In this document: positions 1 to 4,515 of the stretch, one piece after another | Layout of the letters: the number at the start of each line of letters is the position of its first letter | Numbering within the stretch: position 1 is the stretch's first letter | DNA from: an uncultured virus (IMG/VR IMGVR_UViG_3300042503_001397) | Taxonomy: Duplodnaviria; Heunggongvirae; Uroviricota; Caudoviricetes | Length of the DNA stretch: 64,000 nucleotides | Virus record (IMG/VR): IMGVR_UViG_3300042503_001397 | Strand: one strand, 5' to 3' | The notes under the pieces: generated by a model | Database searches by the model: none | What the model was told of the DNA's origin: nothing | What the model saw: the letters and a program-made list of their open reading frames with translations, nothing else | Position numbers and translations under genes: made by a program

Positions 1-24
1 TTTGTCATACTTGTCACTTTCCAT
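1..24 (-). CDS. 5' end of a gene running off the window (MESDKYDK...)
   Basis: ATG at 24-22 after an A-rich leader downstream of tRNA-Phe; open to the window edge. Confidence 0.4.
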
Positions 25-47
25 AGTATTTGTTTTTAATTGTTAAG

Positions 48-119
48 TGGAAATAAGTAGAATCGAACTACTGCTACCAGAGCTTCAATCTGGCGCTCTA
101 CCAACTGAGCTATATTTCC
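48..119 (-). tRNA. tRNA-Phe(GAA)
   Basis: GGAAATA/TATTTCC acceptor, CCAGA-TTGAAGC-TCTGG anticodon arm, TTCGATT T-loop; no encoded CCA. Confidence 0.92.
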
Positions 120-121
120 AA

Positions 122-206
122 TGGTGAGAGTAGAAGGACTCGAACCTCCGAACTCGAATGAGAACTGATTTACAGTCAGTTGCAATTGCCGCTATGCGAT
201 ACTCCC
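122..206 (-). tRNA. tRNA-Tyr(GTA)
   Basis: ACTGA-CTGTAAA-TCAGT arm, long variable arm, GGTTCGAGTCC, encoded ACCA end. Confidence 0.95.
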
Positions 207-274
207 ATTTCCAATTTTGTTATCACCATATCCTCCCGTTTCGGAGAGGCGTGTTCCGGATTGGTAACCGTTTG

Positions 275-348
275 TAGAAGATATAGGATTCGAACCTATG
301 ACCCTCGCCATGTAAAGACGATGCTCTAACCAACTGAGCTAATCTTCT
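275..348 (-). tRNA. tRNA-Val(TAC)
   Basis: AGAAGAT/ATCTTCT acceptor, TCGTC-TTTACAT-GGCGA arm, GGTTCGAATCC. Confidence 0.92.
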
Positions 349-359
349 ATTTTTCCACA

Positions 360-371
360 ATGTCAAAGAAC
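360..371 (-). promoter_or_regulatory. boxA-like antitermination site within the tRNA array
   Basis: GTTCTTTGACAT, similar to rRNA-operon boxA; near-identical copy at 2073-2084. Confidence 0.65.
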
Positions 372-378
372 CTATCTG

Positions 379-450
379 CGGGGATAAAAGGATTCGAACC
401 TATGACCTAGTCATTAACAGTGACCCGCTCTACCGCTGAGCTATATCCCC
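379..450 (-). tRNA. tRNA-Asn(GTT)
   Basis: GGGGATA/TATCCCC acceptor, GGTCA-CTGTTAA-TGACT arm, G73. Confidence 0.93.
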
Positions 451-488
451 AAAACAAAAAACCTCTAACTTTTTTATCAGTTAGAGGT
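451..488 (-). terminator. Intrinsic terminator (attenuator) directly 5' of the tRNA array
   Basis: Perfect 10-bp stem ACCTCTAACT(488-479)/AGTTAGAGGT(470-461) followed by TTTTTGTTTT. Confidence 0.85.
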
Positions 489-546
489 CTTTTTATGTTG
501 ATGAGTAAAATCTTTTTTTATCCAACATCGGTGTCATCCTCTAACT
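479..546 (-). promoter_or_regulatory. Alternative antiterminator hairpin
   Basis: AGTTAGAGG (546-538, inside leader ORF) can pair 9/9 with the terminator 5' arm; nested helix ATGTTGG(528-522)/TCAACAT(501-495). Confidence 0.75.
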
Positions 547-679
547 TTGTACTAATATAATCCACCTTGCCTAATTCTAGTTGCGCCGGGTTGCTTATCG
601 TACTAAACATACGAATCCCACACCACTCATTTCTCAATGCTGGTTGCGAATTATTTGTATGTAAGTTAAAGTTTTTCAT
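518..679 (-). CDS. Putative attenuator leader peptide, 53 aa (MKNFNLHTNNSQPALRNEWCGIRMFSTISNPAQLELGKVDYISTKLEDDTDVG)
   Basis: Translated by hand, ATG 679 to TAA 518; overlaps antiterminator strand; below the ORF-track cutoff. Confidence 0.7.
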   Translation of the reverse strand: MKNFNLHTNNSQPALRNEWCGIRMFSTISNPAQLELGKVDYISTKLEDDTDVG

Positions 680-729
680 CTTTGTTATGTTAATAAGTAT
701 GTAATAATTTATTTTTCAAATAACTTTTA

Positions 730-766
730 GAAAAAATGTAATGGGGAGACAAAGCCTCCCCTTACA
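730..766 (-). terminator. Intrinsic terminator ending the large-RNA transcript
   Basis: TGTAAGGGGAG..CTCCCCATTACA hairpin followed by TTTTTTC. Confidence 0.75.
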
Positions 767-812
767 AATGTAATAAAAATTAAGATATGAAAACAACTTT
801 TCAGTTGAATCG

Positions 813-903
813 AGCGGTCTCATAGATTTGAACTACATCCTCCGAATTGGAATATCCGGTGTGCCCAAGCTCCTAAGAACTTTTACCATAACACTCAAAC
901 CGC
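813..903 (-). tRNA. Non-canonical tRNA-Gly-like RNA, 8-nt anticodon loop, hairpin inserted in D-loop
   Basis: GCGGTTT/AGACCGC-U73, CCGGA-TATTCCAA-TTCGG, TGTAG-TTCAAAT-CTATG; D-loop contains AAGTTC-TTAG-GAGCTT. Confidence 0.7.
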
Positions 904-1118
904 TTATGTGGAGAGTTTTTTTAATTGGAAGGGAACTCTCCGAGTACTTTCGAAACCCCATAATACTATTTCGTATTGATTACTTTACTTTAAGTCTTTT
1001 ACAACTTTGGCGAAATCCAATCTAAACCACATTAATTCTCTAACTTTCCAGTTTCAATTTTAAGTCTCAAACTAACTTGCCTCACTAATGAGAACTCAAT
1101 GTTAAACAGACTACGATG

Positions 1119-1190
1119 AGCGGTGCGAAGGTTCTGCTCCCCCTCCTCTACACTGGAATGTGTAGCGTGCTACTATTACACCAATACCGC
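1119..1190 (-). tRNA. Non-canonical tRNA-Gly-like RNA, 8-nt anticodon loop, atypical T-loop
   Basis: GCGGTAT/GCACCGC-U73, CTACA-CATTCCAG-TGTAG, T-loop AGCAGAA. Confidence 0.7.
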
Positions 1191-1195
1191 TTATA

Positions 1196-2035
1196 AATGG
1201 ATGAGAATACTCCAATGGGTGATTCAGCTTTAAAAAGATTATTAGTTCCTTTCGTTTCCACTTCCTTTTGAGAAGTACCAAATCAATGTCGGTCAGTATA
1301 GCCAACCAATCTTAAAGTCATAACCTACTCTCTCCGTACTTATTTTCTTCAACCCTGCCGAGCTGATTCACACTTGCGATGTTAGAAACCTTTCGAAAGA
1401 ATCACCTCTACCTTGCGAGTAGATTGTGGCTGGGAACAACTCCCAACTATGTAGACACCTTTCAGTCATAACTGATGAACACTTTTGCTTTATGATTATT
1501 TATAGTTTTTACACCTTAGTAAATATAAAGTTTTGGTTCGTAGATGGATTCAGGTAGCGGTTCATCGTAGGCTTCGTTTCCTTTTGAAAAACGAAATACC
1601 AAACTACCCGATGCGTTATCTCAACGCCATACTTCAAGTCATCTTCAATAGTAGGGATTGGTGTCCCACACTAAAGGATAGTAACGCCACCACGCGTACA
1701 CAGTCTTAACTTACGTCCTTTCGGATAGCTTGTTTATCAAGACCACTTTGGTATTGAATCACGCAATAGTAAAAAGGGATTAGCTTTCTATGTCTTACAA
1801 TAATCCTATGAGTTATTCTTATCGTTGTTCCCAACTCAACTGAAGAATCTACTATTCCTCAGTCATCCAAACTCTTCTGCTACAGTGTTACCCTCACATA
1901 CAAAGCCCAAATGATATCTCACTTGCCTACTCAAGCTCATACCTTTCGATATGAACCGCAAAACACTTAACCAAATGTTTCACTTTATCCTACTTTCGTA
2001 GTTTATTTAACGACCATAGGCGGCCGTTTGTACAC
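1196..2035 (-). ncRNA. Large structured ncRNA (~840 nt), GOLLD-like
   Basis: No convincing ORF, raised GC, many GNRA/CAAA-capped hairpins (1990-2001, 1934-1957, 1573-1595, 1407-1423, 1260-1276), flanked by tRNAs; size and context fit GOLLD; ends approximate. Confidence 0.7.
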
Positions 2036-2072
2036 TATATAACACAAGGTTATTATGTGTAGTCATTTTAGT

Positions 2073-2084
2073 ATGTTAAAGAAC
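2073..2084 (-). promoter_or_regulatory. boxA-like site upstream of the large RNA
   Basis: GTTCTTTAACAT about 27 nt downstream of the 2111-2142 promoter. Confidence 0.7.
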
Positions 2085-2110
2085 GTTTCAGAACTTATTT
2101 CTGATTTTTA

Positions 2111-2142
2111 TAAAGATACGAAATAATTTTCATATTTCCTAA
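2111..2142 (-). promoter_or_regulatory. Bacteroidota -33/-7 promoter
   Basis: TTAGG..CGTATCTTTA, 32-nt span. Confidence 0.7.
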
Positions 2143-2220
2143 TCTTTTTTTATTTATTTTTAAAGATTCTCAATTTTGTTTTCTGGCGAACCAATCAACT
2201 ACTTTATTTTTGAATCTTAG

Positions 2221-2252
2221 TAAAGATACGATAATTATTTCAAACTACCAAA
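2221..2252 (-). promoter_or_regulatory. Bacteroidota -33/-7 promoter
   Basis: TTTGGT..CGTATCTTTA. Confidence 0.75.
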
Positions 2253-2353
2253 TCTTTTTTTAAAAATGTTATTAAGGTGTCCGGCTTTCTTCCCTACTGG
2301 GTAGGTCACACAATCGGTTTTATTAGTTGTTGGCTTCAACCCTAATAACTTTG

Positions 2354-2385
2354 TAAAGATACGAAATGTTTTTCAATATTCCTAA
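2354..2385 (-). promoter_or_regulatory. Bacteroidota -33/-7 promoter
   Basis: TTAGG..CGTATCTTTA. Confidence 0.7.
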
Positions 2386-2407
2386 TATTTTTACAAATAT
2401 TTTTTTG

Positions 2408-2479
2408 TTGCGGGGGATGGGTTCGAACCACCGGCCTCTAGGTTATGAGCCTAGCGAGCTACCACTGCTCTACCCCACG
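2408..2479 (-). tRNA. Initiator tRNA-fMet(CAT)
   Basis: C1:A72 mismatch, A11:U24, CTAGG-CTCATAA-CCTAG arm. Confidence 0.9.
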
Positions 2480-2499
2480 ATGTTTAATTGTTTACTTCG

Positions 2500-2531
2500 T
2501 AAAGATACTAATAATATTTGATATTACCAAA
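2500..2531 (-). promoter_or_regulatory. Bacteroidota -33/-7 promoter
   Basis: TTTGGT..AGTATCTTTA upstream of tRNA-fMet. Confidence 0.75.
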
Positions 2532-2549
2532 TATTTTTTATCTTTTTTA

Positions 2550-2574
2550 TAAGTCATTGAAAATCAATGAGTTA
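2550..2574. repeat. 25-bp palindrome, consensus TAACTCATTGA-N3-TCAATGAGTTA
   Basis: taagtcattgaaaatcaatgagtta; more copies at 21.3 and 23.7 kb. Confidence 0.75.
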
Positions 2575-2871
2575 CACCATACCAGTAATATATGCTATTG
2601 CTTCAGCTCTTTTAGTATTAAAAACTTCTTCTGTAGAATATTCAAATGTAGTACCTGCAACATTTGGGTCAGTAATACCATCTTCTGCTGCGGCCATACT
2701 TCTTAATACATTACCTTTAAATGTAAATAATTGCCCTTGAAATTGCAATTCAGTTAAGTGTTGTACTGCTAAATCTTTAGTTCTTTCATTTGAAGATGCA
2801 ATAGTAACTGTAAAAGTTTCATCGTTAAATTCAAAGTATTGGTTTTGTAAATGGAAATATTCCTTTGCCAT
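2572..2871 (-). CDS. Hypothetical protein
   Basis: 99-aa ORF downstream of promoter 2898-2929. Confidence 0.75.
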   Translation of the reverse strand: MAKEYFHLQNQYFEFNDETFTVTIASSNERTKDLAVQHLTELQFQGQLFTFKGNVLRSMAAAEDGITDPNVAGTTFEYSTEEVFNTKRAEAIAYITGMV

Positions 2872-2897
2872 AATTTTATTTTTTAATTGTTATAATG

Positions 2898-2929
2898 TAA
2901 ATATACGAATAATTATTCAAACTACCAAA
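2898..2929 (-). promoter_or_regulatory. Bacteroidota -33/-7 promoter
   Basis: TTTGGT..CGTATATTTA. Confidence 0.7.
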
Positions 2930-2947
2930 AATAGTTTTAAATATTTT

Positions 2948-3799
2948 TTATCTACCATGTCTATTTCGTGTCCATTGAAATAATTGGTTTATTTGATAAT
3001 CCTGTAAATAATATGGGTACATCACATATGCAGTCATCCAACCTTCATGATATCCATATGCACCTCCCCAAAGTTGAAGTGTACTCATTTGAGGTATTCC
3101 TTGATATCCATAACTACCATTTGCATATAAGCTACCATTTACAAATAATTGATGGTATCCACCATTCAATCTATGAGCTATCATATGCCAACCTCCCATA
3201 TAACCATTCCACTCACACAATACAGGCATGTAATCAGGACCATGCTCAAAACTTCTAACCCCATTTGAACCACAAGCCACACCACATCCGGAATATGAAT
3301 AATTTGAGAAATTATAAGGGTAAACGTTTGACCTATTAGGATATACTGTACCAGCATATCTTCCGTATGCAAATGATGTGTCTTGATAACAATATGTCCA
3401 AAATACTTGAGTTGCTGTATAGTTATTTCCGTAATTACATCCGCTCCAAACAGTACCAGAACAATAAAATCTACCACCTTCACTATTTTGAGCGTAGCCG
3501 GGGTTTACACCACCCCAACCGCATCTACCATATGTACCAACACTTATTATTTGACCTCCATAGTTACTTCCATTATTGTTATCAATATTAGGAGAGTCAT
3601 GCGATTCGGGATGTCCAGCATCCAATATTACTATCGCAGAACCTATATCATTCCAATAGTATTGGCCATACATTGTATTATATCCGTGATTAGATGCGCC
3701 AGTATTTCCACCAGTTACTCTATTCCATCTTCTGATTTGAAGCTGTCCACCAATATTAAAAGTTCTCCAATCACTTGCAGCATAACCAAATACAGCCAT
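2948..3799 (-). CDS. Gly/Tyr/Asn-rich LamG (ConA-like) domain protein, probably virion-associated
   Basis: ILDAGHPES motif and C-terminal WHMIA..QLFVNG..LQDYQINQLF pattern. Confidence 0.55.
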   Translation of the reverse strand: MAVFGYAASDWRTFNIGGQLQIRRWNRVTGGNTGASNHGYNTMYGQYYWNDIGSAIVILDAGHPESHDSPNIDNNNGSNYGGQIISVGTYGRCGWGGVNPGYAQNSEGGRFYCSGTVWSGCNYGNNYTATQVFWTYCYQDTSFAYGRYAGTVYPNRSNVYPYNFSNYSYSGCGVACGSNGVRSFEHGPDYMPVLCEWNGYMGGWHMIAHRLNGGYHQLFVNGSLYANGSYGYQGIPQMSTLQLWGGAYGYHEGWMTAYVMYPYYLQDYQINQLFQWTRNRHGR

Positions 3800-3810
3800 T
3801 TTATATTATT

Positions 3811-4515
3811 TTATTTTTTATTCATCATTGCTACCAATGATGTTGCTGCTTTATAAACAGGACTCTTATCATCATACTTCAATGCTGATGCTACTTTAAT
3901 ATCTCTACCAGTTTGTGGATTCTTAACCATTTTATTAGCTATATCCTTTGGTAAATTAGATGTTAATTTACTATCTTTTGGTGATAAATCTTTCATAGGT
4001 TCATCTTCTTTTTTCTTTTCTTTACCAAAAACAAAAGTCTTTCCACCTTTAAATTTAGAATATGCTTGTTCAACTTTACCAGGTTGGAACTTACCAATAT
4101 TATCTTCACTTCCGTTTTTAAATATTAAATGTGCATCACCCTTAGTATCTTCACCACCATATATTACCGCATCTTGATTATACTTCTTACATAATAATTC
4201 AATATCTCTTTTTTTCATACCAGGTACAAATAAAGATACTTCAATAGAATCTTGTAATTTACCTTCTGGACACTCTACATAGTTTAAATTAGAATCCTGG
4301 CATTCTTGCCAATGTCCTTCTACTTTAAAGAATCCATATCCCTTAGAACGTAAATCCTTTTCTAACATCTTATTAGCTTGGATATTCTCTTTCTTTGTAT
4401 TAGCGTATCTATATGCAGTCAACATACCCCAAGAAGGTACTTTCTTTTCTACTACGTGTTGATAAGCTCTAGCTAAAGAGGCTTCATCTAATTTGTAAGG
4501 TTTTTGTCTTTCCAT
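3811..4515 (-). CDS. Phage protein, DUF3293-like
   Basis: SLARAYQH, MLTAYR, VEGHWQE, EVSLFV, KYNQDAVIYG motifs. Confidence 0.55.
   Translation of the reverse strand: MERQKPYKLDEASLARAYQHVVEKKVPSWGMLTAYRYANTKKENIQANKMLEKDLRSKGYGFFKVEGHWQECQDSNLNYVECPEGKLQDSIEVSLFVPGMKKRDIELLCKKYNQDAVIYGGEDTKGDAHLIFKNGSEDNIGKFQPGKVEQAYSKFKGGKTFVFGKEKKKEDEPMKDLSPKDSKLTSNLPKDIANKMVKNPQTGRDIKVASALKYDDKSPVYKAATSLVAMMNKK

Follow-up and report, generated by a model that had tools for sequence, protein, structure and literature searches.

The window (the whole stretch of DNA analysed, 64,000 nucleotides from an uncultured lake phage) has a G+C content of 32.8% and carries 65 of its 67 long ORFs on the minus strand. 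Read along that strand, the protein genes are followed by a tRNA-Met gene, a GOLLD RNA, a tRNA-like stretch of about 400 nt, a hairpin at 761-743, a short leader ORF, a terminator, and a tRNA array that extends past the end of the window. The features needed for the sections below are listed here in the same order.

2479-2407, minus strand: tRNA-Met, directly upstream of the GOLLD RNA
1611-1198, reaching to about 2100, minus strand: GOLLD RNA (Rfam RF02032, 295 bits, E = 1.4e-84)
743..761, minus strand: upstream hairpin with T-run, 8 pairs of which 6 are GC, at the end of the GOLLD and tRNA-like unit
680..725, minus strand: candidate promoter region, an A-rich tract and then a TATA-like AT motif, without a Shine-Dalgarno (SD) sequence
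518..679, minus strand: leader ORF, 53 codons plus stop, encoding all 20 amino acids
663..671, minus strand: segment 1, codons 3-6, pairing with segment 2 (547-539 in the MFE fold); proposed anti-antiterminator
607..662, minus strand: hairpin P1 inside the ORF, with an invariant basal helix of 6 bp and a covarying apical stem of 4 bp
538..547, minus strand: segment 2 (arm A), located in codons 45-48 and repeating the 3′ arm of the terminator; predicted to pair with segment 3 or segment 1
495..528, minus strand: inner hairpin predicted by folding, enclosing the stop codon 520-518 and lying inside the antiterminator loop
479..488, minus strand: segment 3 (arm B), the terminator 5′ arm, assigned from the hairpin and from covariation
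461..470, minus strand: segment 4 (arm C), the terminator 3′ arm, with 98.0% of cells paired
451..460, minus strand: T-run of the terminator, abutting tRNA-Asn
47..450, minus strand: start of the tRNA array, with tRNA-Asn(GTT) at 450-378, tRNA-Val(TAC) at 348-274, tRNA-Tyr(GTA) at 206-122 and tRNA-Phe(GAA) at 119-47

A GOLLD RNA was found upstream in all 12 leader loci scanned, which agrees with the published association of phage GOLLD with tRNA-Met and tRNA islands, as given in the available text of that report (bioRxiv 10.1101/2024.12.08.627333). The same text describes the GOLLD structure and its proximity to tRNAs in the same setting of tRNA-Met, GOLLD and tRNA island, and in this available part there is no mention of a leader ORF or an attenuator. 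The stem at 743-761 varies in sequence among relatives while its pairing is kept (L001, L002, L003, L010, L019 and L059), and it probably terminates the GOLLD unit. Because this hairpin closes the unit made up of GOLLD and the tRNA-like sequence, the leader is implied to have a transcription start of its own. The TATA-like motif of the candidate promoter ends 3-20 nt upstream of the ATG, and the motif was seen again, by eye, in 26 representative upstream regions. A sigma-70 scan gave 22 sites against 17.3 expected, a result from which no promoter could be assigned. In four of the relatives (L017, L060, L066 and L071), the window-type hairpin is replaced by a repeat-rich coding sequence that ends 30-40 nt before the leader and in which Ala, Val, Thr, Asp and Ser codons are abundant.

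On the downstream side, a same-strand tRNA begins 5-34 nt past the T-run in all 70 testable loci, that is, those with at least 120 nt beyond the T-run, and in 69 of them this first tRNA is tRNA-Asn(GTT). The 70 loci yielded no tRNA on the opposite strand. The relatives carry 9-22 same-strand tRNAs within the first ~2.9 kb, with up to 20 amino-acid specificities inside 2.9 kb (L009). A gap of 5-34 nt is too small for a promoter, and therefore at least the first part of the array must be transcribed through the terminator hairpin.

The leader ORF and its relatives

A 53-codon ORF at 679-518 had been described in an earlier note made from the sequence of this window, and it was found as given, with its stop codon at 520-518 and the hairpin 29 nt further on. 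Relatives were sought in uncultured viral and metagenome contigs using the peptide and peptide alignments as queries. The search yielded 88 leader loci, some of which are one contig fetched twice, and the phage contigs that carry them are up to 288 kb long. Together with the window these loci make 89 entries, which comprise 66 distinct leaders and 61 distinct peptides, and 60 sequences form the alignment A3. The nearest record, G001, has no match to positions 451-1200 of the window, and nothing similar to the leader region was found in cultured-phage DNA. A tblastn search of the leader peptide against 50,697 phage records gave chance-level matches alone (best E = 0.6), and no relative of the leader was found in the GTDB species genomes.

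Conservation of the ORF length upstream of tRNA arrays in related phages had been named as a check. The ORF is intact in 89 of 89 entries and is 38-53 codons long, with 11 different lengths represented, and it opens with an invariant ATG-AAA across the relatives. Between lineages, the conserved RNA elements of the leader fall in different frames, which applies to segment 1, to the 3′ strand of hairpin P1 and, in L066 and L071, to arm A. The ORF is open throughout, so that its openness is kept independently of the RNA pairings.

Differences among the relatives at codon positions 1, 2 and 3 amount to 0.242, 0.233 and 0.292, respectively. Values this close to equal indicate that the peptide sequence is hardly under protein-like selection, as should be the case for a leader peptide. 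The nucleotide conservation of the region is strong, and RNA-level constraints alone account for much of the leader sequence. In terms of initiation, SD-like 4-mers precede only 2 of the 67 long ORFs of the window, compared with 6% of random positions, so that an ORF that lacks an SD sequence is the usual case in this phage. Bacteroidota typically initiate without SD sequences, and the combination of SD-poor phage genes, ORFs on one strand and low G+C suggests a host with SD-independent initiation, for example a member of the Bacteroidota.

RNA-library contigs of four freshwater metatranscriptomes cover the leader region, and contigs from four such metatranscriptomes cover the GOLLD part at ~1200-2100 as well. 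These RNA runs consist of Logan contigs, which are silent on ends, strand and level, and the leader parts left uncovered by them carry no meaning. The RNA contig X2 record 8 (355-589) spans the terminator into tRNA-Asn and is compatible with read-through RNA, with DNA carry-over as another possible source.

Terminator, antiterminator and helices within the ORF

The perfect 10-bp hairpin formed by 488-479 and 470-461 is present, as is the T-run next to tRNA-Asn, which is followed by the tRNAs for Val, Tyr and Phe. Within codons 45-48 the earlier note had reported a 9-nt copy of the terminator 3′ arm. It lies at 546-538, and with the preceding bases it forms an 11-nt direct repeat. The second helix that had been placed at the stop codon could likewise be identified as the hairpin at 495-528, which encloses 520-518. 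The MFE fold of the full leader (-56.6 kcal/mol, z = -4.23) contains the pairings 1:2 and 3:4. When segment 4 was left out, the MFE fold contained the 2:3 antiterminator together with the inner hairpin.

Both of the competing helices are well preserved in the relatives. Across the 60 sequences of A3, 98.0% of the cells of the terminator helix are paired, and at least 6 T stand directly behind the terminator stem in all 66 distinct leaders. The antiterminator helix A:B, for which covariation with the terminator had been anticipated, is paired in 96.6% of cells, and 3 pairs, or 17 cells, have changed on both sides. None of 500 shuffles reached the A:B covariation score, and slid controls were 27-60% paired. 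Arms A, B and C change as a set, with a majority version and minority lineages in which the three have changed compatibly (L014, L016, L017, L019, L072 and L083), and in some classes segment 1 is altered together with A, B and C (for example in L014, L017, L072 and L083). The folds and the covariation thus uphold the earlier proposal of a mutually exclusive antiterminator, one arm of which belongs to a short, conserved ORF.

The position of the stop codon is also kept. In 58 of the 66 distinct leaders it lies 11-19 nt past arm A, and in most its distance to the following arm B is 25-34 nt. For the other 8 the script gives 24-47 nt from segment 2 to the stop, and in some of these the arm was misplaced by the script. 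The arm-finding script misparsed L008, L013, L020, L066 and L071, and the arms of these leaders were read by eye.

Two elements of the leader do not appear in the earlier note. The first is segment 1, which changes with arm A in most of the minority classes. The leaders' own 1:2 duplexes have a mean of -8.97 kcal/mol compared with -7.18 kcal/mol for cross-class swaps, and in 12 of 15 minority-class leaders the own pairing beats both swaps. The exceptions are L017, L018 and L076, in which the own partner gives no better pairing, and L015, which contains a mismatch. The helix is short, with seven base pairs including G-U pairs, and a helix of this kind is not rare by chance. It was not recovered by RNAalifold from the A3 alignment. 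A3 sets segment 1 in two registers, and for this reason the 1:2 pairing was scored with anchored scripts and not by alignment pair counts. From these sequence comparisons the 1:2 helix appears likely. The second element is the conserved hairpin P1, in whose apical stem two pairs have changed on both sides, one in 18 of the 60 sequences and the other in 12. P1 may possibly serve as an RNA polymerase pause hairpin.

Amino-acid and codon composition of the leader peptide

In the leader of the window, all 20 amino acids occur by codon 41 and 37 distinct codons are used, and both of these earlier counts are correct. Among the relatives, all 20 amino acids are found in 56 of the 61 distinct peptides and 19 in the remaining 5, in which the missing residue is E three times, D once and R once. 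The all-20 composition is kept in relatives down to about 38% identity, and peptides as short as 39-44 residues still hold all 20 amino acids, across lineages. In windows of the phage's own long ORFs, all 20 are found with a probability of 0.046 for a length of 53 residues and of 0.006 for 39, and the mean number of distinct residues in windows of its own proteins is 15.6-17.0.

Column shuffles gave 24.4 ± 3.1 rows with all 20 amino acids, with a maximum of 34, and none of 2000 shuffles reached the observed 56, a comparison in which the relatedness of the sequences is ignored and the significance is overstated. A sequential test was deliberately conservative, in that a residue shared with any earlier row was counted as inherited, and it gave P = 1e-3 in one order and P = 1.4e-5 in the other. 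Tyr occurs exactly once in 60 of the 61 peptides, in either of two alternative main columns, and the exception carries an additional Tyr in a third column. Cys is present in every distinct peptide (n = 61) and is scattered over 8 columns, and Arg is spread over 11 alignment columns. The single Tyr, Cys and Arg residues are in complementary placement among the peptides.

Codon diversity is a different matter. When compared with 53-codon windows of this genome, the 37 codons of the leader stand out clearly from the 27.6 ± 3.1 of the windows (P = 0.0002), as the earlier note had supposed, but given the peptide the expected number is already 31.9 ± 2.1 and the excess is reduced to P = 0.012. Across the family, the median P for codon diversity given the peptide is 0.086, and 19 of 56 leaders, which are non-independent cases, have P < 0.05 (L060 contains N and was omitted from this test). 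The diversity of codons follows mostly from the diversity of amino acids. Between 26 and 37 of the 61 sense codons are used and the excess given the peptide is weak, so that the description of the leader as "pan-codon" could not be maintained. The element is pan-amino-acid and not pan-codon, and its unusual feature is the amino-acid coverage. Some of the rare NCG and GGG codons of the leader sit within RNA helices. A matching of leader codons to phage anticodons was dropped, because the phage tRNAs read nearly every codon by wobble.

A proposed attenuator and its alternatives

The attenuators of amino-acid operons (trpL, hisL, leuL, thrL, pheL and ilv) consist of a short ORF, an intrinsic terminator, and an antiterminator that shares the 5′ arm of the terminator. 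An upstream segment pairs with the antiterminator arm, and the stop codon is placed so that a ribosome finishing the ORF blocks the antiterminator. The phage leader is like the trp-type attenuators in its same-strand short ORF, terminator, antiterminator and stop placement, and a 1:2 pairing is predicted in it as well. On balance, we consider it probable that the element is a ribosome-mediated leader-peptide transcription attenuator, which is located before a tRNA array and senses the supply for all 20 amino acids.

In the proposed mechanism, the pairings 1:2 and 3:4 of the four leader segments would lead to termination, while the pairing 2:3 would prevent the terminator from forming. If no ribosome is on the leader, 1:2 and 3:4 would form and transcription would end 5-11 nt before tRNA-Asn. 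The presence of segment 1 and P1 points to such a trp-like design, in which the default without translation would be termination and not read-through. A ribosome that finishes the ORF would cover segments 2 and 3 or separate them, because most relatives have their stop codon 11-19 nt past segment 2, and this would allow 3:4 to form and transcription to stop. If an initiated ribosome is slowed earlier in the ORF, it would keep segment 1 off segment 2, the 2:3 helix would form, and the polymerase would enter the tRNA genes. From this geometry we infer read-through on stalling, and the phage would probably transcribe its own tRNAs only when ribosomes read slowly. A stall in the middle of the ORF leaves segment 1 free behind the ribosome, so that sensing at any codon carries the assumption of queued ribosomes or of steric exclusion.

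The peptide of 38-53 codons would be kept so that every amino acid is present, many of them exactly once. With each amino acid represented, a shortage of any charged tRNA family could raise the transcription of the tRNAs, and the outcome would be a supply-on-demand feedback for the near-complete tRNA set of the phage.

Among the alternatives, the one that survives best is that the leader is a general translation-coupling sensor. It would report initiation and the pace of the ribosome with RNA polymerase, the quantity reported would be global translation capacity or the stage of infection, and the all-20 composition would have no sensing role of its own. A slowdown of any kind would suit the four-segment anatomy and the stop position, and it is consistent with this idea that the choice of codons is little more diverse than the peptide requires and that five peptides lack one amino acid. 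However, a sensor of this type gives no reason for all 20 amino acids in peptides of 39-44 residues across lineages, and the complementary placement of the single Tyr, Cys and Arg residues is left unexplained by it. We regard this explanation as rather unlikely.

The ORF might not be the sensor at all, and the structured leader might act as an RNA-only switch, in which a bound protein, tRNA or small molecule selects either the terminator or the antiterminator. The very strong nucleotide conservation with its slight third-position excess, the invariant and covarying P1 inside the ORF, and the richness of the region in structured RNAs, with GOLLD upstream in 12 of 12 loci, are all features that such a switch would share. 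What it does not account for is an ORF that is open in 89 of 89 entries despite indels and frame changes of the RNA elements, together with an invariant ATG and an all-20 composition that is meaningful only under translation. In addition, Rfam at E ≤ 1 gave no family for 451-700 except a chance-level match to sraA on the opposite strand, and no T-box was matched (cmscan, E ≤ 1, window 1-4000). An RNA-only switch is therefore quite improbable.

RNase P has to cleave at the 5′ end of tRNA-Asn, directly next to the terminator hairpin, and the alternative helices might for that reason guide RNase cleavage or shield the 5′ end of the tRNA precursor, with no role in termination. This is very unlikely, as a T-run of at least 6 T is kept behind the stem in 66 of 66 distinct leaders, mutually exclusive pairing is a hallmark of termination control, and the ORF and its composition would be left unexplained. 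The least credible explanation, which we consider extremely improbable, is an ordinary gene for a small phage protein that has a terminator of its own. The tRNAs would then arise by constitutive leak-through or be transcribed from elsewhere, and the repeat inside the ORF would be incidental. A conserved ORF followed by a hairpin and T-run fits this explanation. It is contradicted by the covariation, three-way and four-way, between the in-ORF arm and the terminator, by a substitution pattern (0.242, 0.233 and 0.292) unlike that of proteins, by the lack of room for a promoter before tRNA-Asn, and by the lack of a family match among cultured phages.

If the element is indeed a leader-peptide attenuator, it differs from those of the amino-acid operons in several ways. 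A run of regulatory codons is missing, and its place is taken by the full set of amino acids, many of which occur once. Segment 1 is located at the very start of the ORF and not over regulatory codons as in the trp-type. The phage leader precedes tRNAs and not biosynthetic enzymes, and the element is phage-borne.

Two other groups of regulators can be compared with it. In the leader ORFs through which antibiotic-resistance genes are induced by attenuation, a drug-bound ribosome stalls and the peptide sequence matters. The phage leader would be similar in that a stall not tied to one amino acid flips the terminator and antiterminator, whereas its composition points to the supply of aminoacyl-tRNA and its output is tRNA genes. 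T-box riboswitches work without an ORF, by direct binding of a single uncharged tRNA. As in the T-boxes, the status of tRNA would be sensed and read-through would be set by competing terminator and antiterminator helices, but the phage leader would read all tRNA families through the ribosome.

The literature searched, as far as its available text goes, contained no leader-peptide attenuator before tRNA genes and no leader with all amino acids, in line with the earlier note, whose author knew of no described attenuator with this logic. What is known is the attenuator structure, and what would be new is leader-peptide attenuation without a regulatory-codon run, gating tRNA genes. In the available text of the sources consulted, the current ideas on phage tRNA genes are codon compensation and escape from tRNA-targeting defence. 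The leader bears on the control of these genes in phages, and on why entire tRNA sets are found in the big ones. If the proposed attenuator is correct, it would bring a new regulatory logic to a classical mechanism and would be the first translation-coupled control described for tRNA genes. It would also be a compact natural sensor of decoding speed that can be tested and reused in reporters.

A broader proposal is that large phages with near-complete tRNA sets gate them by a mini-gene that contains every amino acid and serves as a "translation test strip", the reading speed of which sets tRNA transcription. We put this forward tentatively and regard it as doubtful. If it were true, a phage would answer the loss of host tRNA within seconds and for any tRNA species, whether the loss came from host shut-off, codon mismatch or tRNA-cleaving defence nucleases, and this would be the first attenuator in which the sensed quantity and the product belong to the same class of molecule, tRNA. 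To see the leader as a response to host tRNA-cleaving defence in particular is speculation.

The leader also offers a concrete, testable handle on the GOLLD and tRNA-island region of phage genomes, in which several minor observations were made. Next to this region, an ORF of 283 amino acids (2948-3799, minus strand) contains unusually many W, Y, G, N and C residues, and the protein has neither a PHROG family nor related viral loci. Between GOLLD and the leader, two tRNA-like stretches on the minus strand (about 1190-1110 and 905-810) have acceptor-like ends, odd-sized anticodon-like loops, and one short loop motif that is common to both. Neither stretch was called by ARAGORN or Rfam in the window. 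At the matching place in relatives (L002, L003 2781-2852), ARAGORN called tRNA-Gly(acc) and a "tRNA-???" with a 2-base anticodon. No tmRNA was found in the first 4 kb of the window. Phage tmRNA genes are located upstream of tRNA-Met and GOLLD in seven relatives (L005, L006, L007, L008, L009, L016 and L060), and the tag peptides of the relatives' tmRNA genes end in AVAA or AIA.
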